Below, one piece after another: positions 11,857 through 30,230 of a stretch of DNA of 33,441 bases (the stretch's first letter is position 1; every line of letters begins with the position of its first letter). This stretch comes from Candidatus Woesearchaeota archaeon. GTDB taxonomy: Archaea; Nanobdellota; Nanobdellia; Woesearchaeales; GW2011-AR4. The notes beneath the pieces are model-generated. The model saw nothing but the letters and a program-made list of their open reading frames with translations, ran no database searches and was not told where the DNA came from. A program made the position numbers and the translations under genes. The stretch is from assembly GCA_016185955.1 (NCBI GenBank), contig JACPMQ010000071.1, positions 1-33,441 on the forward strand, written 5' to 3'.

Positions 11857-11891
11857 AACACTAAAAATCTGCAAGGCAGATTTTTAGTGTT
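11857..11891. repeat. F2 hairpin copy a (AACACTAAAAATCTGC-AAG-GCAGATTTTTAGTGTT)
   Basis: Perfect 16-bp inverted repeat with a 3-nt loop, 4 nt after the tRNA 3' end. Confidence 0.85.
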
Positions 11892-11919
11892 TTGCAATAA
11901 CTATCCATTTTTAAATAAA

Positions 11920-16693: not shown

Positions 16694-16819
16694 AAAACCA
16701 CCGGTAAGAAAAAGAATATAGGGGTGTTTATAAATTTATGTTTTAAATAGGAAACATTTTACTATGCCTTTTTTGCATCTTTTTGAGAAGCTTTTTTCCG
16801 AATGGTTTATATATAAATC

Positions 16820-16859
16820 AAAACACTAAAAAATCTGCAAGACATATTTTTAGTGTTTT
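16820..16859. repeat. F2 hairpin copy b (degenerate inner stem)
   Basis: AAAACACTAAAAAATCTGCAAGACATATTTTTAGTGTTTT. The outer 13 bp pair and the inner part has diverged from copies a and c. Confidence 0.75.
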
Positions 16860-16873
16860 GCGGTGGAATTTTT
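16860..16873. repeat. F1 half-site (3' arm only, GCGGTGGAATTTTT)
   Basis: Matches the 3' arm of F1 copy f, but no 5' arm is present. It directly abuts F2 copy b. Confidence 0.6.
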
Positions 16874-16877: not shown

Positions 16878-16901
16878 TTAGTTATACAACAAATTTTGAA
16901 A

Positions 16902-17291
16902 ATGGAGGATTTGACAATAAAAGTTGATGGTAAGGAATACAATGTTAAGGTAGAAGAGACAGAAGACGGCAGAATTTTAGTGCATTGCAACGGCGATGTT
17001 TATGAAATTCAGACAACTGGAAGCAAAGAAACATCAATTTTCAACAGAACTAAGAAAAAGAGCATAGAGGAAACCGGAAAATGCGCTGTTACAGCTCCGC
17101 TTCCTGGAACAATTTATGAAGTAAGGGTAAAGCCCAATGATATTGTTAAAGAAGGCGATTTATTAATAAAGCTTGTAGCCATGAAAATGGAAAATGATAT
17201 AATTGCGCCTAAAGGTGGAATTATAAAAGAGGTCAATGTCAAAAAGAACGATAATGTTAATAAGGATGATATTCTCCTTATTATAGAGTGA
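16902..17291 (+). CDS. Biotin carboxyl carrier protein (biotinyl/lipoyl domain)
   Basis: The C-terminal 70 aa form a biotinyl domain with the biotinylation motif VAMKME (canonical AMKM) followed by IIAPKGGIIKEV. ATG at 16902; the TTG at 16896 is the ORF-track start. Confidence 0.8.
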   Translation: MEDLTIKVDGKEYNVKVEETEDGRILVHCNGDVYEIQTTGSKETSIFNRTKKKSIEETGKCAVTAPLPGTIYEVRVKPNDIVKEGDLLIKLVAMKMENDIIAPKGGIIKEVNVKKNDNVNKDDILLIIE

Positions 17292-17301
17292 TTAGAGGAA
17301 T

Positions 17302-18069
17302 ATGGCAAAAAAAAATATTGCAAAAAATGAAAATGCCGACGAGCATCTAAATTTGAAGCCATTGGTTTTATCTGCTTTGTTTGCCGCGCTTACAGCCGCT
17401 GTTGCGCAAATTAAAATACCTTTAGGATTTACTCCTGTCCCTATAACCTTGCAAACTTTGCTTGTATTGCTTGCAGGAGCAATATTAGGCCCTTATTATG
17501 GCGCAATGTCTATGACTATTTATCTTGCTTTAGGCGCGATCGGACTTCCAGTATTTGCAGGCGGTTCTGGCAGTATAGCCGCTTTTTTCGGTCCCACTGG
17601 AGGCTATTTATTAAGCTACCCAGTTGCTGCATTTGCAGTAGGAAAAATATTGGAAAACAAAAGAAACAAATTTTTAAAATATTTTTCATTTTTTGCTATT
17701 GTTAGTTTGGTGGCTATTGTAGCTGCTGACTCAATATTTAAAATTGGAGTAATCCCCTTTCTCTTAAAAATATCAGATAGGGTAAGACTGATGGTTATAG
17801 TGCTCAGCATATTTGTGCTTCTTTTGTTATTCTTAATGGTTTATGCAAAAAAATATTTTCCTGCAGATATTGTGCTTGCTATGCTTGCAGCTACTTTGAT
17901 AATTTACGCTATGGGAGCATTGCACGGAAAAATCGTTACTAAGCTTCCATGGAGCGCGATATTTGTAGGCTGGGTGCTTCCATTTATAGTCGGAGATGTG
18001 ATAAAACTGTTAATAGCTGCGTGGATAGCGGATAATGCGGTAAAAGGGCTTATAAAAATAAAATATTAA
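17302..18069 (+). CDS. bioY: Biotin transporter S-component BioY (longer than typical)
   Basis: IPLGFTPVPITLQTLLVLLAGAILGP and GPTGGYLLSYPVAAF are characteristic BioY motifs. An extra hydrophobic segment of about 60 aa sits in the middle. Confidence 0.85.
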   Translation: MAKKNIAKNENADEHLNLKPLVLSALFAALTAAVAQIKIPLGFTPVPITLQTLLVLLAGAILGPYYGAMSMTIYLALGAIGLPVFAGGSGSIAAFFGPTGGYLLSYPVAAFAVGKILENKRNKFLKYFSFFAIVSLVAIVAADSIFKIGVIPFLLKISDRVRLMVIVLSIFVLLLLFLMVYAKKYFPADIVLAMLAATLIIYAMGALHGKIVTKLPWSAIFVGWVLPFIVGDVIKLLIAAWIADNAVKGLIKIKY

Positions 18070-18084
18070 TTTGCTTCTCGTATA

Positions 18085-18990
18085 ATGGTAGAATTTTTAC
18101 AAAAAAAATTAGGGCATGAAAAACTTATTCTTCTGAAAATTTTTTCTTACAGCTGTATGAATTGTCTGAGGTCTTTTGCATTTATAAGAAAAATAAATGA
18201 TAAGTACAGGAAATATGGATTAATAACAGTTATTGTACATCCTCCTGAATGGAAATTTGAAAAGAAAAAAAGCAATGTGCTTTGCGCATTAAAAAAGTAT
18301 AATATTAGGATTCCAATAATAATTGACCGAAATAAGAAAGTTATAGAAAAGCTTGGAATAGATTTCTGGCCAGCGCAGATATTGCTAAAAACGAATTTTC
18401 CGCCGCTCATAGAGCGGTGGAAATTTCGTTGTGGTAAAACAAAAGCCAAGCCGATGAAAGGCAAAAATGCGAAACCGATAAATGGCACATTTGTAAAAAT
18501 TGCCTATAAGCATATTGGAGAAGGAAATTACAAAGAGCTGGAAAATAAAATAATAAAGCTCTTAAAAATAAATCCCGATAAGGTATTTAAAAAAGTATTC
18601 AGAAAAGAGCCGAGCTACAGCAAATTTCCAAGCGTGTATTGCGGCAAAAGAAAAAATGGAAAAATAAAACTATTGGGGCAAAAAATAAAATTAAAATTTA
18701 ATGTTATTTATACTGATAAGAATTGGATTCAAAGGCAGGAATATATTAAATCAGTAGCTGATAAAGCTTCTTTAGAAATTGCCTCAAAAGGCAGGATAAT
18801 AAATTTTGTTGCAGAATCTCTGTTACAAAAAAAAATAAAAGTGGATGTGAAAGTAAATAATTATATAAAAACAATAATGGTGGGCAAGCCAAGGCTATAT
18901 ACGCTTATTGAATTAAAATCCAGTAAACTAAATAAGCTAAGGCTAATATCAGATCCTAATTTGGCAATATACTCATTTTCATTCCAATGA
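18085..18990 (+). CDS. Thioredoxin-fold (TlpA/redoxin-like) CxxC protein with C-terminal domain of unknown function
   Basis: LLKIFSYSCMNCLRS (CxxC after a beta strand) ... IPIIIDRNKKVIEKLGIDFWPAQILL ... VKIAYKHIGEG follows the redoxin topology. The roughly 160-aa C-terminal part is not recognisable. Confidence 0.5.
   Translation: MVEFLQKKLGHEKLILLKIFSYSCMNCLRSFAFIRKINDKYRKYGLITVIVHPPEWKFEKKKSNVLCALKKYNIRIPIIIDRNKKVIEKLGIDFWPAQILLKTNFPPLIERWKFRCGKTKAKPMKGKNAKPINGTFVKIAYKHIGEGNYKELENKIIKLLKINPDKVFKKVFRKEPSYSKFPSVYCGKRKNGKIKLLGQKIKLKFNVIYTDKNWIQRQEYIKSVADKASLEIASKGRIINFVAESLLQKKIKVDVKVNNYIKTIMVGKPRLYTLIELKSSKLNKLRLISDPNLAIYSFSFQ
18391..18429. repeat. F1 hairpin copy embedded in frame in the thioredoxin-fold CDS
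   Basis: ACGAATTTTCCGCCGCTC-ATA-GAGCGGTGGAAATTTCGT. 17 of 18 arm positions pair (one G-T wobble, one T-T mismatch). It starts at codon position 1 and spans exactly 13 codons (TNFPPLIERWKFR). The sequence is close to intergenic copies d and f. Confidence 0.75.
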
Positions 18991-19685
18991 TAGAAACAAA
19001 AAATCTTTATTTTAAATATGAGGACAATCTTATTTTAAAAAATATAAGCATAGAAATAAATGATGGCAGCTTTATAGCCATTATCGGGGCAAATGGCTCT
19101 GGAAAAACAACTCTTGCGAAGCACTTTAACGCGCTGCTTCTCCCCACAAAGGGCAATGTTTTAATAGATAATATTGACACAAAAAAAAAACAGTTTAATG
19201 CAAGAAAAAATGTAGGCTTTGTTTTTCAAAATGCTGAAGACCAATTAATTTATTCTATTGTCGAGGAAGATATTGCCTTTGGGCTTGAAAACCTTGGAAT
19301 TGAAGCAAGCGACATAAGGAAGAAAGTCAAGGAAATAACGAAGATGCTTGGCATAGAGCATATTGCAAAACAGAATGTGAATATGCTTTCCGGCGGTCAA
19401 AAACAGCTTGCAGCATTGGCAGGAGTATTAGTAATGAAGCCAAAATACATTGTTTTTGACGAGCCTACAGCAATGCTTGACACAAGAAATAAGAGAAACA
19501 TCATTAATATCATGGGCAATTTAAACAAAAGGGAAAAAATCGGGATAATACTTGTGACAAACATCTTGGAGGATATAAAGCATGCCAACAGCATTATCGC
19601 GATAAAAAATGGAAGCATAATTTTTAACGGAAAAAAATCAAGGCTTAGCAATGCTGTAATAAAAAGGTGCGGTTTAGATGCTTAA
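18987..19685 (+). CDS. ecfA: ECF transporter ATPase component (EcfA/BioM/CbiO-like)
   Basis: Walker A GANGSGKTT, Q-loop, ABC signature LSGGQKQ and Walker B YIVFDEPT. Confidence 0.88.
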   Translation: MIETKNLYFKYEDNLILKNISIEINDGSFIAIIGANGSGKTTLAKHFNALLLPTKGNVLIDNIDTKKKQFNARKNVGFVFQNAEDQLIYSIVEEDIAFGLENLGIEASDIRKKVKEITKMLGIEHIAKQNVNMLSGGQKQLAALAGVLVMKPKYIVFDEPTAMLDTRNKRNIINIMGNLNKREKIGIILVTNILEDIKHANSIIAIKNGSIIFNGKKSRLSNAVIKRCGLDA

Positions 19686-20346
19686 GAAGCTTGCTTTCGG
19701 ACAGTATATCCATAAAAACTCCGCAATCCACAAATTAGATGCCAGAGTAAAAATTTTATCGGTTTTCTTGCTGAGCTTATTTGCATCAACGATTAAGTCT
19801 TATGATAAGATGGCAATATTAACTTTTTTTGTGATTTTTACAGTGATGCTTGCTAAAATAGGAATAATAAGATTGATTAAAAGCTTAAAGCCTTTTTTTT
19901 ATATGTATCTCTTCATAATACTTATGTACACATTGTTTTCAAAAAATCAGCTTCTCATAGGAATATTAACAGTGTGGAAATTCGCATTATTTGTTGTTAT
20001 AGGAGCTATATTAACTTTTACTACAACCATAACCAGCTTAACTAATGCAATTGAAAAGCTATTAATGCCTCTGAAGTTTTTTGGAATAAACCAAAGAAAT
20101 GTTTCGCTTTTATTGTCCCTCGCAATAAGGTTCATACCCTCTTTTTTTTTATATGCGGAAAAGATAAAAGATGCAAGGGTTTCAAGGCTTGGAGCCTTTA
20201 AAATAAGGCATTTGAACCTTTTAGTTGCCCCTTTAATGGAAAGGCTGTTTAAAACTGCTTCCACTGTAAGCGAGGCTATGCTGTCAAGAAATTATTCATC
20301 AAAAAGAAAAAAGCAAAACTGCAATGGCCATAAACTCCGCTGGTAA
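19678..20346 (+). CDS. ecfT: ECF transporter transmembrane component (EcfT/BioN/CbiQ-like)
   Basis: Polytopic protein overlapping the ecfA stop. EcfT-type coupling-helix region SLAIRFIPSF...AEKIKDARVSRLG. Confidence 0.8.
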   Translation: MLKKLAFGQYIHKNSAIHKLDARVKILSVFLLSLFASTIKSYDKMAILTFFVIFTVMLAKIGIIRLIKSLKPFFYMYLFIILMYTLFSKNQLLIGILTVWKFALFVVIGAILTFTTTITSLTNAIEKLLMPLKFFGINQRNVSLLLSLAIRFIPSFFLYAEKIKDARVSRLGAFKIRHLNLLVAPLMERLFKTASTVSEAMLSRNYSSKRKKQNCNGHKLRW

Positions 20347-20385
20347 AAACAAATTTTCCACCGTTCTATGAGCGGCAGAATTTTT
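20345..20385. repeat. F1 hairpin copy d (AAATTTTCCACCG-TTCTATGA-GCGGCAGAATTTTT)
   Basis: The stem is imperfect (about 9 of 13 positions pair), but the sequence including the TCTATGA loop is close to copy a. It lies between convergent genes and overlaps the last base of the ecfT stop. Confidence 0.7.
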
Positions 20386-20389
20386 AAGT

Positions 20390-20644
20390 TTACTCCTTAG
20401 AAGTTTTTTGCCCAAACAAAATTCCTGCGAGCACATTCAAAGCCCATGCCTGCAATACATTTATCTTGTATAGGCTGCCAAAAATAAAATTCCACAGCAA
20501 TTTCACTGGAAGGGCAAGCACTAATCCAACTATTCCGCTTATTAATATGACTAATGCTATTGTGTATGCCACTTCCAGCATTCTCCTCAATATCGGCACT
20601 TGCTCTAAAAATTTTATCATTGGGAAAATATAGGCAAATTTCAC
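20390..20644 (-). CDS. Small membrane protein (two predicted TM helices), unknown function
   Basis: 84-aa ORF with hydrophobic stretches IALVILISGIVGLVLALPV and AWALNVLAGILFG. GTG start, with an alternative ATG at residue 9. Confidence 0.45.
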   Translation of the reverse strand: MKFAYIFPMIKFLEQVPILRRMLEVAYTIALVILISGIVGLVLALPVKLLWNFIFGSLYKINVLQAWALNVLAGILFGQKTSKE

Positions 20645-20670
20645 GATTATTTAAATTTTTGTAAAAATAG

Positions 20671-20874
20671 TAACTGCTAACATAGATTTGTCCGAGAAGC
20701 AGGGTTTTTGCGAAAGTTTAATTTAGTGCTTGTGCGGAGCCTTATACTCCTCTCAACTTCGCAACATTTCATGTTGCTCAGGTCGCTTATCACAATCCTA
20801 CGGAGTTTTCTGAATTGGCAAATACGCACAAGCACCGACTTTCGCAAAAACCCTTTATGCTGTGTTAGCAGTTA
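20671..20874. repeat. Element A: 204-nt three-tier foldback (candidate structured RNA or MITE-like palindromic element)
   Basis: 20671-20682 pairs with 20863-20874 (12/12), 20702-20717 with 20838-20853 (16/16), and 20726-20736 with 20825-20835 (11/11). The 88-nt core contains the hairpin GCAACAT-TTC-ATGTTGC. Element B is a paralogue. Confidence 0.8.
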
Positions 20875-21586
20875 TGAAAATATCCCCTTCCATTATTTTT
20901 TTAATTTTGCCATTATCCAGCTTTAACAGTAAGTTGCAGTCTTTGTCTATGCCAATTGCTTTGCCTGCATATTCTCCTTCTAAAGTCTTTGCCTTTACCC
21001 ATTTGCCTATTGTATGCGAAGATTTTTTCCAGAGATTGGTGATTTTAAGGCAATCATGTTTTTCATAATAGGCATATAGCCGCTGAAATTCCCTTATTAT
21101 AAATTTTGCCGCTGTTTTAACTTCAAATTGCTTATTACATTCTATTTTTAATGATGTGGCTTTTTCCATAATAATTTTCGGAAATTTTTTCTGGTTTATG
21201 TTAAGCCCTATGCCAATGATTGCATAAGTTTTTTTGCCGTGCAAAATTTCTGTTAAAATGCCGCATACCTTCTTGCCATTTACTAAAACATCATTGGGCC
21301 ACTTTACCATTCCATTTAATCCTGACAAGGATTTTATTGATTTTGAAACAGCTAAAGAAGCGATTAGTGTGAGGTATTTAATTTTGTCGGAGTTTTTTTC
21401 TTTGAGGAGAATTGTCATGTATAATCCTCCTGAACTAGAGCTCCATTTTCTGTTAAAGCGGCCTCTGCCTTTTGTCTGCCTTTCAGCTATAACTACTAAG
21501 TTAAAATTACCCTTTTCAGCAAAAGTTTTGGCCTTATCATTAGTGGAAGAAACAGTATTGTAATTATAAAGCTGAAAGTTTGGCAT
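20855..21586 (-). CDS. birA: Biotin--[acetyl-CoA-carboxylase] ligase (catalytic and C-terminal domains, no N-terminal HTH)
   Basis: ERQTKGRGRFNRKWSS (GRGRxGR biotin-binding loop), KWPNDVLVNGKKVCGIL and GIGLNIN. At 243 aa it is a class I ligase without a repressor domain. Confidence 0.88.
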   Translation of the reverse strand: MPNFQLYNYNTVSSTNDKAKTFAEKGNFNLVVIAERQTKGRGRFNRKWSSSSGGLYMTILLKEKNSDKIKYLTLIASLAVSKSIKSLSGLNGMVKWPNDVLVNGKKVCGILTEILHGKKTYAIIGIGLNINQKKFPKIIMEKATSLKIECNKQFEVKTAAKFIIREFQRLYAYYEKHDCLKITNLWKKSSHTIGKWVKAKTLEGEYAGKAIGIDKDCNLLLKLDNGKIKKIMEGDIFITANTA

Positions 21587-23499
21587 TAAGACTCACTGTT
21601 TTGTATTGCTTCCTGCCTTGCTGCCATTACCCACGGGCTTACCTTATTGTTGCTATTGTTGCTATAAGACTTTTTTTTCTCAAGATATTTTGAAACTGCG
21701 GTTGTAACAAGAAGTATTTTCTGCTCACTTGCCAGCTCTTTTTTTTGCTCCGTATACTCATTTACATATTCAAGTATATTATTCTTCTGTATGAAGGATG
21801 TTGACACATGTCCTCTGATGAAATTTTTGTTGTTTAAAACTGCCAAATGGAAAGGTATTGTTGTCTTGATTCCTGCAATAGTGTACTCTTTTAAGGCTCC
21901 TATCATTTTTGTGATTGCTTCCTGCCTCGTGTTTCCATGGCATATAAGCAAAGATAGCAATGAATCGTAATGTGGCAGCACTTTATAGCCTTGATAGCAT
22001 ATGCTGTTTACCCTTATTCCTGGTCCTCCAGGCGCAAGATAATTAGTAATTGCGCCCATTGACGGATAAAAGTTGTTTGATGGGTCTTCTCCATTTATTC
22101 TGCATTCAATTGCCCAGCCATCCAGCTTTATGTCTTCTTGCTTAAACGCAAGCTTTGCGCCAGAAGCAAGCTTAATCTGCTCTTTAACAAGGTCTACTCC
22201 AGTTACCATCTCTGTTACGCCATGCTCAACTTGAATTCTTGTGTTCATCTCTATAAAATAAAAATTCTTGTTTTTATCAAGTAAAAACTCTACTGTGCCT
22301 GCGCCTTCATATTTTGCTGCTGATGCCACTTTAAGGGCAGTTTCTCCCATTTTTGCCCTTAGTTCATCACTTAATGCAGGGCTTGGAGATTCTTCTACAA
22401 GCTTTTGGTGCTTTCTCTGTATGCTGCAATCCCTTTCCCCTAAATGTATAACATTGCCGTACCTATCAGCTAATATTTGAAATTCTATATGGCGTGGCTC
22501 CTCTATATACTTCTCCATGTATAGGGATTTATCGTTAAAAGACATATAAGATTCTGCTTCAGCATTTTCATAAGCCCTTTCCAGCTTTTCCATTACTCTT
22601 ACGATGCGCATTCCTTTGCCGCCGCCGCCAGCAGCTGCTTTTATTATCACTGGCAGCCCAATTTTCTTAGCAACGTTAAATGCGTGCTTTTTATTTTTTA
22701 ATGGGGTTGTTGTGCCTTCTATAACCTTAACTCCTGCCTTTGATGCTGTTTTTTTTGCCATAACCTTATCTCCCAAAAGCCTAATTGTTTTTGAAGATGG
22801 TCCTATAAATTTAATGCCATTCTTCTCGCATAATCTTGCAAACTTGTAATTCTCTGCTAAAAAGCCATAACCAGGATGTATTGCATCCACCTTTACCCTT
22901 TTTGCAATCTTTATTATCTTATTAGTGTCAAGATAGCTTATCGCGGAGCCTATGCAATATTTTTTATCAGCAAATTTTATTGAGAGGGTGTTTTTGTCAG
23001 GAGTTGAGTAAACTAATACTGTTTCTATTCCAAGCTCTCGGCATGCCCTAATAACCCTCAATGCTATTTCTCCGCGATTTGCTATCAAAACCCTGTTAAA
23101 CTTTTTCTCCTTTGAGAGAAAGGTGTAATCCTTTTCACTAATGCTTAATCCCTTGGCTACCATGTCAAGAAAACTCTGTGAAGACTTGCTAGCCACTATT
23201 TTTTTGATTTCCCTTTCACCCATAGCAGGAACCTTTTTTATTATATTTGAGGTTATTACATCCCCTATCTCAGCTAAATCCGTTCTTTCGACAATCTTTT
23301 TGCTCTTGGCAATTGAAACAAAATTATTTTTAAAAAATTCCTCTACTTCATTATAAACCAATGGCGCTGCCTTTTTTATGCCGCTGAACAGCTTCTTAGC
23401 ATAATTATAAGAATAGCCAACAGGAATCAGGCTCTTATTTAGGGAAGATAACAGCATATTCCTGACATCCTGAGCTATACTTTTGTTTTTCTTTGCCAT
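21586..23499 (-). CDS. accC: Biotin carboxylase (AccC / PycA-type ATP-grasp) with a roughly 130-aa N-terminal and roughly 60-aa C-terminal extension
   Basis: The core starts at RVLIANRGEIALRVIRACRELGIETV, followed by GYGFLAEN, IIKAAAGGGGKGMRIV, EEPRHIEFQILADRYGNVIHLGERDCSIQRKHQKLVEE and FIEMNTRIQVEH. Residues 1-130 and the C-terminal tail have no recognisable motif. Confidence 0.9.
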   Translation of the reverse strand: MAKKNKSIAQDVRNMLLSSLNKSLIPVGYSYNYAKKLFSGIKKAAPLVYNEVEEFFKNNFVSIAKSKKIVERTDLAEIGDVITSNIIKKVPAMGEREIKKIVASKSSQSFLDMVAKGLSISEKDYTFLSKEKKFNRVLIANRGEIALRVIRACRELGIETVLVYSTPDKNTLSIKFADKKYCIGSAISYLDTNKIIKIAKRVKVDAIHPGYGFLAENYKFARLCEKNGIKFIGPSSKTIRLLGDKVMAKKTASKAGVKVIEGTTTPLKNKKHAFNVAKKIGLPVIIKAAAGGGGKGMRIVRVMEKLERAYENAEAESYMSFNDKSLYMEKYIEEPRHIEFQILADRYGNVIHLGERDCSIQRKHQKLVEESPSPALSDELRAKMGETALKVASAAKYEGAGTVEFLLDKNKNFYFIEMNTRIQVEHGVTEMVTGVDLVKEQIKLASGAKLAFKQEDIKLDGWAIECRINGEDPSNNFYPSMGAITNYLAPGGPGIRVNSICYQGYKVLPHYDSLLSLLICHGNTRQEAITKMIGALKEYTIAGIKTTIPFHLAVLNNKNFIRGHVSTSFIQKNNILEYVNEYTEQKKELASEQKILLVTTAVSKYLEKKKSYSNNSNNKVSPWVMAARQEAIQNSES

Positions 23500-23517
23500 G
23501 TGAGATTTATTCCTTGT

Positions 23518-23549
23518 AAAAATTCCGCTATTGCGAACGCGGAATTTTT
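23518..23549. repeat. F1 hairpin copy e (AAAAATTCCGC-TATTGCGAAC-GCGGAATTTTT)
   Basis: Perfect 11-bp arms in the spacer between the carboxyltransferase and accC genes. Confidence 0.8.
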
Positions 23550-23580
23550 ACCAGTTATGTTGGTAAGCCCTGCACTACGA

Positions 23581-23617
23581 AACACTAAAAAATCTGCAAA
23601 GCAGATTTTTTAGTGTT
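23581..23617. repeat. F2 hairpin copy c (AACACTAAAAAATCTGC-AAA-GCAGATTTTTTAGTGTT)
   Basis: Perfect 17-bp inverted repeat that overlaps the carboxyltransferase stop codon (23616-23618). Confidence 0.85.
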
Positions 23618-25124
23618 ATAATGGCATATTCCCATGCTTCTTTGCAGGCATTCTTTCCCTTTTTGATAGAAGAGTTTCCAAACAGCTAATTAAGGTTTTC
23701 CTTGTGTCCTTTGGCTCTATTATTATATCCACCTTACCATACTTGGCTGCTGCATAAGGGTTTAGAAATTTTTCATTATATTCTTTAATCCTTTCATTTT
23801 TTATTTTGGCTCCATTATTCCCTTTAAGCTCTTTTCTGAATATGAGATTAATTGCTTGCTCTGCGCCCATAACAGCTATTTCTGCATCAGGCCATGCAAT
23901 TACCGCATCAAAGCCCATTTCCTTTGAAACCATTGCAATGTAAGCTCCCCCATAAGCTTTCCTCATAACAAGGCTTATTTTAGGGACAACAGCTTCGGAA
24001 TATGCATAAAGGACTTTTGCTCCATGCCTTATTATGCCATTATGCTCTTGCTCAACTCCCGGCAAGTAGCCGGTAACATCAACAAGATTTATCAAAGGTA
24101 TGTTAAAGCAATCGCAAAATCTTACAAACCTTGCTATTTTGTCAGAGCTGTTTATATCAAGGCAGCCAGCCAATATTTTTGGCTGATTGGCTACAATGCC
24201 AACAACATTATTGTTTAGCCTTGCAAAGCCAACAACAGCGTTAGGAGCATATAATGGATGTATCTCAAAAAATGTGTTTTTATCCACAATTTCCTCTATG
24301 ACTTCCTTTACATCATAGCTTTTTTTTGTGTCTTTAGGGATTATGTCCTTTAGCTTGTTATTCAGCCTTTCTGCATTATCATGCGCATTCAAAAAAGGCG
24401 GACTTTCCAAATTATTTTGCGGCAGATAGCTCAGTAAAAATCTAATTAGCTCAACGCATTCCTTTTCGTCTTCTGCAACAAAATGCGCAACGCCGCTTTT
24501 TTGGTTATGAGCTAAAGTCCCGCCAAGAGACTCAAAGTCTATGCTTTCACCTGTTATTGTTTTTATAATATCCGGGCCGGTTATAAACATATAGCTGACT
24601 TTTTTTGTCATAAAAATGAAATCGGTTAAAGCCGGGCTGTAAACAGCAATGCCTGCGCAAGGTCCCAGTATAGCTGATATTTGCGGAATTACTCCAGACG
24701 CTAATGTGTTATTTTTGAATATTAAGCCACCGGAATCAAGGCTGTTAATGCCTTCTTGGATTCTAGCGCCTCCGGAATCCAGCAAACCGACAATTGGGCA
24801 GCCTGTTTTTAGGGCATGCTCCATTATTGATGATATTTTTTTGTTGTGCATTTCCCCCATAGAGCCACCGATAAAGGCAAAGTCTTGGGCATATACACAT
24901 ACTTGCCTTCCATTAATTTTTGCATAGCCCGTTATTACTCCGTCTCGCGGCATTTTTTTTTCCTGCAATCCATAATCATGGCTTCTAAGCTCCATAAACT
25001 CATTTACCTCAACAAAAGAGCCTTTGTCTACTAAAAGCTCTATCCTTTCTTTTGCAGTTAATTTTCCCTTTTCACGCTGCATTTTGATTGCTTCTTTGTC
25101 TTTTTTAGGCGTATTTTTTGTCAT
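23616..25124 (-). CDS. Acyl-CoA carboxylase carboxyltransferase subunit (propionyl-CoA carboxylase beta / methylmalonyl-CoA decarboxylase alpha family)
   Basis: 502 aa with two crotonase-like halves. Motifs LTAKERIELLVDKGSF.E, VYAQDFAFIGGSMGEMH, LLDSGGARIQEG, RKAYGGAYIAM and AWPDAEIAVMGAEQA. Confidence 0.9.
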   Translation of the reverse strand: MTKNTPKKDKEAIKMQREKGKLTAKERIELLVDKGSFVEVNEFMELRSHDYGLQEKKMPRDGVITGYAKINGRQVCVYAQDFAFIGGSMGEMHNKKISSIMEHALKTGCPIVGLLDSGGARIQEGINSLDSGGLIFKNNTLASGVIPQISAILGPCAGIAVYSPALTDFIFMTKKVSYMFITGPDIIKTITGESIDFESLGGTLAHNQKSGVAHFVAEDEKECVELIRFLLSYLPQNNLESPPFLNAHDNAERLNNKLKDIIPKDTKKSYDVKEVIEEIVDKNTFFEIHPLYAPNAVVGFARLNNNVVGIVANQPKILAGCLDINSSDKIARFVRFCDCFNIPLINLVDVTGYLPGVEQEHNGIIRHGAKVLYAYSEAVVPKISLVMRKAYGGAYIAMVSKEMGFDAVIAWPDAEIAVMGAEQAINLIFRKELKGNNGAKIKNERIKEYNEKFLNPYAAAKYGKVDIIIEPKDTRKTLISCLETLLSKRERMPAKKHGNMPL

Positions 25125-25206: not shown

Positions 25207-26400
25207 ATGGAAAAAAGGCTTCTTGTTGTCGGAATTGACCCTGGGACTACATTAGGCTATGCTGCGCTTGATTTGAACAAAGAGGTTATGGCATTAAAAT
25301 CCTCAAAAAACTTTGGATTGAATGAATTGCTTTTGGACATAACAAAAATAGGCAAAGTGATTGCAGTAGGCACAGACAAAGCAAAAATACCTCATTTAGT
25401 CCAGCTTTTTTCAGCCAAAACGGGGGCAAAAATCTTTCATCCAAACGATGATTTGAAGGCAGAGGAAAAGAAAAAATTGACGGAAAGCTTTGAAACTGCA
25501 AATTGGCACCAAAATGACGCATTAGCAAGCTCTCTTTTTGCATTTAACAACATAAAAGCCACTCTTGACAAGATTGAGGGCTTTGTTGAGGATAATAACA
25601 AAAATTCAATCAAGGAAAAGATAACTGAACTTGTGCTAGCTAAAGGGCTAAGCATAAAGGAAGCTGCCTCGCTTATAGAAAACAAGGATTCTGAGGAAAC
25701 TGAAATAATAAAGAAGGTAGTTGAAGAAAATAAGATGACCCAAAATGATTTTATGAGGCTTTACCGCATAATAAAAAGGCATGAAAGAGAAAATTATCTC
25801 CTTAAAAGGCAAAATAACAATCTTAAAAACTATGTTAAAGCTCTGGAAAAAAGGCTTAATTACGCAAAAAAAGAGCATAGTGAAGGTATTAGCAAGAAAG
25901 ATGGCAGAAATATCAAAGAAATTTTGCTGAAAGAAAAAGGCATTAATTTTCTTCAAAACAGATTAAATATGTCAGAAGAAGATGTAAAAAAATCCGCTTT
26001 AGACATTAAAAAGCTGAATTGCATGCTCTCAAAATGCAATAGCTCTTTTATATTAAAGAAATTAGACAACCTCGGCAGATTAGAGTTTGAAAGGAAAAAA
26101 GAATTGCTTAACATAGAAAAAGATGATATTCTTCTTGTAGAAAACCCAAGCATAATAAGCGAAAATGTCATGGCATTTTTAAAAGACAAAGTCAGCATTA
26201 TACTTACAAAAAACCCTATAAGCGGCAAAATAAGGGAAAAATATTCCTTTTCGTTTGTAGATTGTAAAAAAATAAGGATGGAAGATGGTGATTTTTTTGC
26301 TATTGCGCCAAAAAAAGAAATTCAGGAGCTGTTAAAAGATAGCAATGTCCTAAAAATGCTAATAGAAGATTATAAAAAGCACAGAGAAGGTAACTGCTAA
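25207..26400 (+). CDS. DUF460 / COG2433-like protein: N-terminal RuvC/YqgF (RNase H fold) nuclease-like domain plus coiled coil
   Basis: LLVVGIDPGTTLGYAALDL...VIAVGTDK resembles the first RuvC/RNase-H acidic motif (GIDPG). The middle is heptad-rich (LLKRQNNNLKNYVKALEKRLNYAKKEH). The last four codons lie in element B. Confidence 0.6.
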   Translation: MEKRLLVVGIDPGTTLGYAALDLNKEVMALKSSKNFGLNELLLDITKIGKVIAVGTDKAKIPHLVQLFSAKTGAKIFHPNDDLKAEEKKKLTESFETANWHQNDALASSLFAFNNIKATLDKIEGFVEDNNKNSIKEKITELVLAKGLSIKEAASLIENKDSEETEIIKKVVEENKMTQNDFMRLYRIIKRHERENYLLKRQNNNLKNYVKALEKRLNYAKKEHSEGISKKDGRNIKEILLKEKGINFLQNRLNMSEEDVKKSALDIKKLNCMLSKCNSSFILKKLDNLGRLEFERKKELLNIEKDDILLVENPSIISENVMAFLKDKVSIILTKNPISGKIREKYSFSFVDCKKIRMEDGDFFAIAPKKEIQELLKDSNVLKMLIEDYKKHREGNC

Positions 26401-26654
26401 TAGAACTATTATCCGAAAAGATGGGTTTTTGCGAATTCTTATTCGTGCTTGTGCGGAGCCTTAACTACGAAAATTCCACCGCTTTTGCGGTGGAATTTTC
26501 GCAATGACAAAAACGATAAACCACGCATTTGGCATCGTTTTGCCTTAACCACGGCTTGTCACTATCAAATTGCGCACAAGCACTGAATTCGCAAAACCCA
26601 TCTTAAGGCTTTGTCATGGCACAGACGGACTTGTCGGACAAAGCTCTGTTAGCA
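26391..26654. repeat. Element B: 264-nt multi-tier foldback paralogous to element A, carrying an internal F1 hairpin
   Basis: 26418-26438 pairs with 26585-26604 (20 bp plus one bulged T). 26445-26455 pairs with 26573-26583 (11/11, identical sequence to A). The outer pairing is 26395-26407 with 26643-26654. Internal hairpins are 26468-26501 (15 bp) and AAAACGAT/ATCGTTTT. Confidence 0.8.
26468..26501. repeat. F1 hairpin copy f (CGAAAATTCCACCGC-TTTT-GCGGTGGAATTTTCG), nested in element B
   Basis: Perfect 15-bp stem with a 4-nt loop. Confidence 0.85.
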
Positions 26655-26672
26655 TATACTTTCCATGTAAAC

Positions 26673-26682
26673 CTTTATAAAT
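26673..26682 (+). promoter_or_regulatory. TATA-like box (CTTTATAAAT) upstream of the MoxR-like gene
   Basis: Centred about 34 nt upstream of the ATG at 26712 and downstream of element B. Position-based guess. Confidence 0.35.
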
Positions 26683-26711: not shown

Positions 26712-27644
26712 ATGATAAGCCAAGAATTAAGTGATATATTATTGGGCAGGAATGAGCCTTTTGATGAAATAATCGGGCAAGATCCAGTAAAATTAGCTGT
26801 AAAGTCTGCATTATTGTCCAATAGACACATAGTATTAGTTGGCGCTCCGGGAATTGGAAAAACTACGCTGGCAAAAAATATAGCAAAGCTCATCGGCAAA
26901 AAAACTCCTTTTGTCAGAATTCAGGGCAGTCCAGACTTAACCGTAGAAGATTTATTAGGAGATATTGATCCAATTAAGGCTTTGAAATATGGGCCTTTAA
27001 GCATTGAAGCATTCACAAAAGGCAAAATCTTTAAAGCTGATAAGGGAGTATTGTTCTTTGATGAATTAAATAGATGCCCTGAAAAGGTGCAGAACGCTCT
27101 TCTGCAGGTTTTAGAGGAAAAAAAGGCTACTATAGCAAGCTATGACGTTGATTTTGATGTTGATTTTGTGTTCATAGCAACAATGAACCCAGAAGATTCT
27201 TCAACGGAAAAGCTTTCAGATGTTCTTTTAGACAGGTTTGATTTAATATACATGAATTATCCTGAAACAATAGAAATAGAAAAGCAAATAGTATTAAAAA
27301 AAGGCAAAAGGCTTAATGACGCAAAAGTAAGTGACAATCTTTTGGAAATTATGATATATTTTATAAGATTGCTGCGGGAAGACAAAAACCTTGAAAAGAA
27401 GCCTTCTGTGAGGGCTTCCATAGGATTGTATGAGAGGTCGCAGTCAAACGCAATTTTAAATGGCAGAAAAACAGCAACTCTTGAAGACTTAAAGTGCGTT
27501 GTTGTTTCAGTTCTCGCGCATAGAATAAGGCTAAAGCCATCTGTGAAATATCTCCAAGCTGCAGAAACTTATATAAGCAGCCAGTTTGAAAAAAATATTT
27601 TGGATAATGATGCATTAGAAGAAAAAACAGGTGATTTACTTTGA
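26712..27644 (+). CDS. MoxR/ChlI-type AAA+ ATPase
   Basis: Walker A LVGAPGIGKTTLAK, Walker B VLFFDELNR and sensor region FIATMNPED...LLDRFD. I chose the ATG at 26712 (MISQELSD...), because the ORF-track start at 26616 lies inside element B. Confidence 0.85.
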   Translation: MISQELSDILLGRNEPFDEIIGQDPVKLAVKSALLSNRHIVLVGAPGIGKTTLAKNIAKLIGKKTPFVRIQGSPDLTVEDLLGDIDPIKALKYGPLSIEAFTKGKIFKADKGVLFFDELNRCPEKVQNALLQVLEEKKATIASYDVDFDVDFVFIATMNPEDSSTEKLSDVLLDRFDLIYMNYPETIEIEKQIVLKKGKRLNDAKVSDNLLEIMIYFIRLLREDKNLEKKPSVRASIGLYERSQSNAILNGRKTATLEDLKCVVVSVLAHRIRLKPSVKYLQAAETYISSQFEKNILDNDALEEKTGDLL

Positions 27645-29586: not shown

Positions 29587-30195
29587 ATGAAACTTTTAGC
29601 ATTCACGGATTTGCACTTGTCATCTAATGCGTTCAAGAAAATCAAATCAAAGGCAAAAAGCGAAAATCCCGAATTATTGGTATGCGCAGGGGATATTTCT
29701 ATTTTCGAGCAGGGCATCGATTTTATGCTCAATAAGCTGAATAAGCTCAAGAAAAAAATATTGATGATAAACGGCAACCATGAGAATGCGAGCATACTTA
29801 AAAAATTGTGCAGAAAATACAAGAATATAATTTTTATCCACAAAAAATATTATAAGCATAACAATCATGTTTTTTTAGGTTATGGCGGCAGCGGATTTTC
29901 ATTAATAGAGCCGGATTTTTACAAAACAGCAAAATATTTTAAAAAAGTAATAAATAGAAACAGGAATAAAAAAATAATTTTGGTGACGCATGCTCCGCCT
30001 TACAAGACAAAACTTGATTTAATAGTGGGGAGCCATTGCGGCAACAAAACTCTAAGAAGGTTTATAGAGAAAAATAAAATTGATTTGAATATATGCGGGC
30101 ATTTGCACGAGAATTTTGGAAAAAGGGACTATATAAAAAAAACTTTTATTATAAATCCGGGTCCTTATGGGAAGATGATAAAAAATTTGCAATGA
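29587..30195 (+). CDS. Calcineurin-like metallophosphoesterase
   Basis: Motifs in order: FTDLH, AGDIS, NGNHEN, VTHAPP and GHLHE. Confidence 0.8.
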   Translation: MKLLAFTDLHLSSNAFKKIKSKAKSENPELLVCAGDISIFEQGIDFMLNKLNKLKKKILMINGNHENASILKKLCRKYKNIIFIHKKYYKHNNHVFLGYGGSGFSLIEPDFYKTAKYFKKVINRNRNKKIILVTHAPPYKTKLDLIVGSHCGNKTLRRFIEKNKIDLNICGHLHENFGKRDYIKKTFIINPGPYGKMIKNLQ

Positions 30196-30230
30196 CACTA
30201 ATCACACTAATCGCAGATTTTTTAGTGTCC
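30194..30230. repeat. F2 hairpin copy d (degenerate 5' arm with CACTAATC duplication)
   Basis: GACACTAATCACACTAATC-GCAGATTTTTTAGTGTC. The 3' arm is intact, and the 5' arm keeps only GACACTAA plus TCGC. It lies between convergent genes and touches both stop codons. Confidence 0.7.

Follow-up and report, generated by a model that had tools for sequence, protein, structure and literature searches.

Element B of a woesearchaeal contig as a probable degenerate copy of a miniature inverted-repeat transposable element

We analysed two related palindromic elements, A (20671-20874) and B (26391-26654), on a contig of a Candidatus Woesearchaeota archaeon (JACPMQ010000071.1, assembly GCA_016185955.1; the whole stretch of 33,441 nucleotides is called the window below). 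We found that A is a member of a multi-copy MITE family (miniature inverted-repeat transposable elements), and that B, which is homologous to A, is with a probability of about 80% an internally deleted, rearranged and degenerate copy of such an element, derived from an A-like copy. An earlier note on this DNA, made from the letters alone, had described B as a larger paralogue of A in which a conserved scaffold with a variable core resembled either a family of RNAs or a palindromic mobile element of modular build. Every feature that it listed for B is present where it had placed it, far from chance expectation. The mobile element was borne out by copy number, terminal inverted repeats, target duplications of about 9 bp, empty sites and nesting, whereas the RNA family was not, given the lack of an Rfam match and of a clear strand asymmetry, the occurrence of copies in both orientations, and the absence of the conserved core from B.

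The finding removes a false lead, as the "compensatory" pairs of A and B are the end repeats of a transposon and are no evidence for a new RNA class. It also defines an apparently undescribed MITE family: its ends, the length of its duplication, its subfamilies and the passengers nested in it. This family is widespread in DPANN archaea, in whose small and gene-dense genomes a large number of repeats would not be expected to be tolerated; its repeats break assemblies and here supply stop codons to genes, and its copies could mark links of contigs or viruses to DPANN hosts. The conservation of its core, as yet unexplained, is a concrete and testable question.

The repeat family and the evidence for its transposition

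The first relatives came from a 19-mer of A, which matched two woesearchaeal metagenome-assembled genomes (MAGs); the whole element of about 150 nt was conserved in both. Copies were gathered by core-pattern and arm-pattern scans of species-representative genomes, and a profile search separated real from chance matches. About 50 copies were recovered, nearly all from Woesearchaeota/Nanoarchaeia MAGs (DPANN archaea). The Nanoarchaeia MAG SMAG_U8094 contained at least 18 copies, several other MAGs 2-4 each, and the window two only, A and B. Some copies were in bins labelled Methanosarcinales or Patescibacteria. The taxon labels of element-carrying contigs are unreliable, however, because L179 and L191 are one identical contig (100% over 197 nt of flank) filed under the MAG labels 'Methanosarcinales' and 'Patescibacteria UBA2163'. 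A metagenome scan with a 14-mer gave chance matches almost throughout, L039 being the sole real one; a genome scan for the TTTTT-type arm of the window gave 108 chance matches and no family member; and the viral contigs, plasmids and phages that we scanned contained no family copy. We located no description of this particular family in the literature, and a search with the end sequence was also blank. The family thus appears to be undescribed individually, but its kind is well known.

An intact member is about 145 nt long (143-156 nt; nested inserts raise this to as much as 192 nt). Terminal inverted repeats of about 35 nt, which correspond to helix 1 plus helix 2, enclose an asymmetric core of about 85 nt with a small central hairpin of variable length. 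The ends are GGTTGGTGCGAAA...TTTCGCACCAACC, and the consensus reads GAGGTTGGTGCGAAAnTC-TAATTC-GTGCTTGTGCG-core-CGCACAAGCAC-C-GACTTTCGCACCAACCTC, with an extra spacer of 5-6 nt on the left arm only. Helices 1 and 2 make up the two ends of A, of B and of every family copy, with 92.8% and 98.6% of cells complementary. As the length differences between members are not multiples of three, the family is non-coding, and its members are shorter than the roughly 600 bp that bound a MITE.

Of 33 full copies, 17 had a direct repeat of 8 nt or more (typically 9-11 nt) abutting both ends; when left and right flanks were taken from different copies, 0.66% of 1056 such mismatched pairs did. Among further newly found copies, 7 of 8 had a target duplication. 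The duplication length is about 9 bp (8-11 bp, the G/C ends being ambiguous). Two insertion sites were observed both filled and empty: in L143 and L154 the element has a copy of ACTAAAAAC on either side, where the orthologous spacer of L235 has a single ATAAAAAC and no element, and L159 is filled where the orthologous L196 is empty. Family copies are themselves interrupted by a mini-palindrome of about 45 nt at three different positions and, in SMAG_U8094, by another repeat. Truncated copies exist, and orientation relative to genes is mixed (left neighbour 19 co-directional and 9 opposed; right neighbour 19 and 12). Because of the target duplications, empty sites, nesting, truncated copies and mixed orientation, we assign the family to the MITEs.

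The mini-palindrome (GTGAATTGCGAGCGACTCGCAGTCGCTCG...TTCAC) lies in the left arm in L142, L143, L170 and L191, in the central hairpin in L132, L154, L227 and L356, and in the right arm in L356; it appears to be a separate, smaller mobile palindrome. The SMAG_U8094 copies L127, L174, L168 and L195 are interrupted by a different, unrelated repeat (...CAAGAACACCnGCCCTTTAGGGCGGGTGTTCTTGAGCACACTCGGAAATCGCC...). L127 and L174 have it at one site, L168 and L195 about 11 nt beyond that site; the explanation is either copying of the composite or targeting of the region by the second element.

Like other prokaryotic MITEs, the family is small and non-coding, with terminal inverted repeats and target duplications of fixed length, and it occurs in many intergenic copies per genome with nesting and decay. 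Unlike them, it has a conserved asymmetric core with a co-varying hairpin and no identified partner transposase. Whole-element hairpins when transcribed, positions between genes or at gene ends, a capacity to supply stop codons and a debated host role are also features of the Correia (Neisseria), ERIC/IRU, RUP and REP/BIME repeats, which are bacterial and unrelated to this family in sequence. Correia elements duplicate TA, and REPs are mobilised by a different type of enzyme, with no duplication. A census of MITEs placed a woesearchaeal genome among the archaea of highest MITE density, with about 105 MITEs per Mb (PMC11602168).

Judged by the end sequence and the 9-bp duplication, the partner is probably an IS5-family DDE transposase, which we regard as a lead and not as proof. 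At 10 of 13 positions the family end GGTTGGTGCGAAA agrees with the IS5-type end GGAAGGTGCGAAT, and the window variant GGGTTTTTGCGAA and GGTTTTGTTGAAAAAATC of L217 resemble the IS903-type end GGCTTTGTTGAATAAATC. The reference ends GGAAGGTGCGAATAAG and GGCTTTGTTGAATAAATC were verified: each terminates an element with a gene annotated as 'IS5 family transposase' or 'IS5-like element ISKpn26 family transposase'. An IS5-family source of the transposase would be marked by ends like GGAAGGTGCGAA or GGCTTTGTTGAA, joined in the IS903 group by a 9-bp duplication. IS5 itself makes 4-bp duplications. IS903B duplicates 9 bp of its target (PMC9769513). The likeness to the IS5 and IS903 groups, in end sequence and, as for IS903B, in the 9-bp duplication, spans only about 13-18 nt of end sequence; the MITE family has no transposase gene, and the partner could belong to another family. 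A tblastn search with an IS903-type transposase was negative, as was a YREK-motif scan of 418 kb of fetched DPANN loci. In the mechanism that we propose, a transposase acting in trans would bind both ends, cut the target with a stagger of about 9 bp and insert the element, duplicating about 9 bp.

Element B and its relation to element A

B measures 178 nt between its ends and 264 nt with its outer repeats. Coordinates are given on the plus strand, except that hairpins are given without a strand. The left outer inverted repeat (TAACTGCTAATA, 26391-26402), which holds the DUF460 stop codon (26398-26400) and has a homologue beside A at 20671-20682, is followed by a left sub-terminal stretch (AGAACTATTATCCGA, 26403-26417; TAGATTTGTCCGAG in A). 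The left terminal inverted repeat (26418-26438), the counterpart of the family end G(A/G)GGTTGGTGCGAAAnTC, is the 5' arm of helix 1 and consists of AAGAT and GGGTTTTTGCGAATTC; the right one (26585-26604) is the 3' arm and consists of GAATTCGCAAAACCC and ATCTT. Helix 1 pairs GGGTTTTTGCGAATTC (26423-26438) with GAATTCGCAAAACCC (26585-26599), with one T bulge, and is extended outward by AAGAT (26418-26422) and ATCTT (26600-26604). A spacer, TTATTC (26439-26444; TAATTC or TTATTC in the family), is present on the left arm only, the right arm having a single T at 26584. Helix 2 pairs the inner left inverted repeat GTGCTTGTGCG (26445-26455) with CGCACAAGCAC (26573-26583), with 4 window matches against 0.2 expected. 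Helix 2 of A (20726-20736 / 20825-20835) is identical, and GAGCCTTA opens the core in A and B alike. Beyond the right arm of B lie an extra hairpin (GCTTTGTC...GACAAAGC, 26608-26644), which holds TCGGACAAA, the inverted partner of TTTGTCCGA in the left flank of A, and the right outer inverted repeat (TGTTAGCA, 26647-26654).

The core of B is 117 nt long (26456-26572). Its start is kept from the family (GAGCCTTAAC TACG, 26456-26469; family GAGCCTTAGC...AACTTCG) and includes the first copy of a 12-nt direct repeat, GCCTTAAC(T/C)ACG (26458-26469). Together with the second copy (GCCTTAACCACG, 26542-26553), it brackets a 72-nt block of two hairpins. One of these, F1, is a perfect 15-bp stem with a TTTT loop (26468-26501). 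It begins right after AACTACG, where intact copies have the variable central hairpin, and this is also the site of the nested mini-palindromes in L132, L154, L227 and L356. The other (AAAACGAT...ATCGTTTT, 26502-26541) has no counterpart in A, the window or the fetched loci, and the B-specific core sequence had no second occurrence in any fetched DNA. Its stem pairs AAAACGAT (26510-26517) with ATCGTTTT (26534-26541), and TGACAA (26505-26510) can pair with TTGTCA (26556-26561). The core ends in an A-type remnant (26554-26572), where GCTTGTCACTATC corresponds to GCTTATCACAATC, a lineage-specific stretch of A, and CAAATTG to GCAAATTA of the family. The folding energy of the B stretch is -112.7 kcal/mol, against -59.1 for shuffles (z = -11.8); for A, z = -7.7. 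If transcribed by read-through, B would be predicted to form a very stable hairpin.

Two F1-like hairpins of the CGAAATTTCCACCGCTCTATGAGCGGCGGAAAATTCG type occur elsewhere in the window (18398-18430 and 20348-20380). They are 88% alike and in opposite orientation, one inside the open reading frame (ORF) 18085-18990 and the other just past a CbiQ-like ORF, and they have an AATT(T)CCACCGC stem in common with the hairpin nested in B.

The long form of A (20671-20874, plus strand) has outer inverted repeats at 20671-20682 and 20863-20874, and the true family member within it is 20702-20853 (nhmmer 117 bits). The flanks of the long form, TAAAAATAG and TGAAAATAT, match at 7 of 9 positions, at the outer palindrome. 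The family profile scores B at 27 bits, through the arms only. When 26470-26553 (84 nt: the two-hairpin block plus one direct-repeat copy) is removed, however, B is 87% identical to A over 141 positions. The alignable parts are the outer repeat, the left sub-terminal stretch, both arms, GAGCCTT, AACT(A/T)CG and GCTTGTCACTATC. Homology continues beyond the GGG...CCC ends into the outer inverted repeats TAACTGCTAAYA / TGTTAGCA(GTTA) and TTTGTCCGA / TCGGACAAA, and the outer repeat common to both elements includes TAACTGCTAACA. The match of GCTTGTCACTATC to GCTTATCACAATC has a shuffle p of 0.02, and the core region of GCTTATCACAATC differs in every other lineage. As this stretch is lineage-specific, B would come from an A-like copy of its own lineage and not from an independent arrival. 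B lacks the family blocks GCTCAGGTCG and CCTGCGGAG, the central hairpin, and either strand of the CUUCGC/GCGGAG pairing.

We infer the following order of events for B. An A-like copy, embedded in the additional outer palindrome, would have been duplicated in the lineage of the window. One duplicate stayed intact and would be A; the other would have lost most of its core, including the central hairpin, GCTCAGGTCG and CCTACGGAG. The reduced copy would then have gained the 72-nt block of F1 and the second hairpin at the position of the central hairpin, with the 12-nt direct repeat around it, giving B. Most likely B is now inactive, an immobile fossil between the DUF460 and MoxR-like genes.

Both arms of B carry AATTC in place of AAA(A/C)TC of the family, apparently with the same 1-nt loss. 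These identical changes suggest arm-to-arm copying, which is the very outcome that the earlier note had named as leaving no evidence for selection on structure. They are also what would be expected if B were a local palindrome made by template switching or foldback in replication and unrelated to transposition. That origin is scarcely credible, because the arms, the spacer and the start and end of the core of B are homologous to a family with proven insertion behaviour; foldback may keep the arms alike, but it leaves the origin of B unexplained. In the MITE reading, the mirrored changes could come from a need for alike ends or from arm-to-arm copying, and not from selection on an RNA fold.

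Paired changes, the core and the RNA question

The arm difference between A and B that the earlier note took as compensatory is real (GCGAAAGT/ACTTTCGC against GCGAATTC/GAATTCGC), although part of the swapped-but-complementary triplet is explained by GAATTC being itself a palindrome. It falls in the transposon inverted repeats and so does not argue for selection on an RNA. Across 26 copies, both sides had changed in 14 of 43 pairs, a count that none of 500 shuffles reached; 10 of the 14 fall in helices 1 and 2, that is, in the inverted repeats. Mirrored changes in the arms are expected without any RNA, as one and the same protein has to bind the two ends, which must go on matching. The three core helices do not vary and are hence uninformative on covariation. 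The remaining signal is in the central hairpin, where 4 of 5 pairs have changed on both sides; it has the form GC-A-NNNN-loop-NNNN-T-GC, or a minimal TTC form.

The helix mismatches on the strand shown are about 22 A-C against 12 G-U, and the mean folding energies of the two strands are -60.7 and -64.5 kcal/mol. These data lean weakly to the opposite strand and give no strand-specific signal.

The conserved scaffold with a variable core that the earlier note described is not a trait of the family: all 20 copies ascertained through the left arm alone have an A-type core, and B is a derivative. Since this arm-only ascertainment gives the same core, the conservation of the core is not a search artefact. 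Nor is the core an extension of the inverted repeat, as its halves beyond helix 2 are no more alike than shuffles (p = 0.93).

We weighed the possibility that A and B are paralogous structured non-coding RNA genes, with helices under compensatory evolution and cores that give different specificities. Besides the excess of both-sided changes, this would account for the very stable predicted folds of A and B, the free covariation of the central hairpin, the conservation of the core between AT-rich and GC-rich subfamilies even in arm-found copies, and the standing of the elements as G+C-rich islands within an AT-rich genome. However, RNA genes would not be expected in at least 18 copies in one small genome, with target duplications and empty sites, and in either orientation relative to genes. 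The mismatches have no decisive strand bias, the core helices never vary and say nothing either way, and the covariation of helices 1 and 2 arises equally from transposon inverted repeats. The conserved core is lost in B, there is no conserved promoter, and no Rfam family matches. We therefore consider RNA genes very unlikely.

Known RNAs were sought in several ways. With Rfam 15, no match reached the gathering score in the window and nothing overlapped A at E-values up to 10; slices of B at lax E-values gave chance-level matches to hairpins only. ARAGORN found no tRNA or tmRNA in the window. Helix 8 of the signal recognition particle RNA, ribonuclease P RNA, the hammerhead, tRNA arms, H/ACA and C/D RNAs, and bulge-helix-bulge introns were considered by eye and rejected, each having a likeness of a few nucleotides and no model match. 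A promoter for the element was also rejected: the TATA boxes 10-25 nt from the ends suit the start codons of the neighbouring genes, to which they belong, they are too close for a start at the first base of the element, and copies occur in both orientations.

Several observations weigh against the reading of B as a degenerate MITE copy. Its arms are almost perfectly complementary beside a wrecked core, an odd state if the fossil decays neutrally. The GGG...CCC ends lack a target duplication in A and in B alike, and both elements are inside the outer palindrome that they share, the origin of which is unexplained. The window and the 418 kb of fetched DPANN loci yielded neither an autonomous element nor a transposase with matching ends. 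The core, which is not palindromic, is kept between AT-rich and GC-rich subfamilies, and the central hairpin comes in at least 9 different versions, each with full complementarity of the stem; neither a conserved core nor a co-varying hairpin is required of a plain MITE.

The core and central hairpin may act in cis as sites for transposition, or may form a structure, of RNA or of single-stranded DNA, that has its own role. That they form a functional RNA or single-stranded DNA structure, carried by the transposon through DPANN genomes, seems unlikely to us; candidates would be a new self-cleaving ribozyme or processing signal that neutralises insertions in transcription units, or a cofactor of the transposon's own mobilisation. 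If so, A would be live and B dead.

Genomic setting and other palindromes

From its sequence, the host is an AT-rich DPANN archaeon, because the named homologues of its archaeal DUF460 protein are from Woesearchaeota/Nanoarchaeota and the nearest DNA relatives of A are in Woesearchaeota MAGs. No transposase, tRNA gene or Rfam family was found encoded in the window. B lies between the DUF460 stop codon (26398-26400, which falls within the outer repeat) and the B recognition element (BRE) and TATA box (AACCTTTATAAAT, 26670-26682) of a MoxR-like ATPase gene. The mechanical ORF of the latter starts at 26616, inside the repeat unit; as the BRE/TATA is 31 nt upstream of the ATG at 26712, the real start is probably 26712, and the gene would be nearly leaderless.

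A strain with a 99%-identical DUF460 gene was found in the public read set Logan SRR12113424 (L232, 1-1608), which could furnish the remainder of the genome, and B is present in this strain. The contig stops at ...CGTGCTTGT, inside helix 2 of B, which fits a repeat origin because repeats confuse assemblers. No other DUF460 homologue exceeds about 55% identity, the ones examined differ in their neighbours, and the exact window proteins are not on record.

This setting bears on whether B has been adopted by the host as a cis-acting element (a 3'-end stabiliser, terminator or insulator hairpin) of transposon origin, as proposed for REP, ERIC and Correia repeats. B stands exactly between a stop codon and the BRE/TATA of the next gene, its long arms are nearly perfect despite the degraded core, it is present in the 99%-identical strain, and other perfect palindromes occur in intergenic spacers of the same window. 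However, there is almost no intergenic DNA, so surviving insertions must fall between stop and promoter, and the position is uninformative. B also has no T-tract signature of a terminator, and, as the nearest other homologues are so divergent and differently placed, they provide no orthologous spacer for a test of retention. We consider host adoption distinctly unlikely.

A lies in a biotin gene cluster, with the 3' end of a biotin-protein-ligase gene on one side and a small membrane-protein gene on the other. This biotin-related cluster (16896-25124) includes a biotin carboxyl carrier, BioY, ECF transporter components, a biotin-protein ligase, a biotin carboxylase and a carboxyltransferase, and such a compact cluster is a notable metabolic capacity for a DPANN genome. 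The outer repeat of A (20855-20874) supplies the end of the biotin-protein ligase (...ATA ACT GCT AAC ACA GCA TAA, minus strand), and that of B (26391-26400) the final codons of the DUF460 gene together with its stop (...AAC TGC TAA). The repeat units have reshaped two protein C-termini.

A near-perfect palindrome of about 35 nt, AACACTAAAAATCTGC-AAG-GCAGATTTTTAGTGTT, occurs in four intergenic copies (11857-11895, 16817-16861, 23586-23622 and 30195-30228). It makes up a third repeat family of the window and may be a terminator-like or mobile hairpin.

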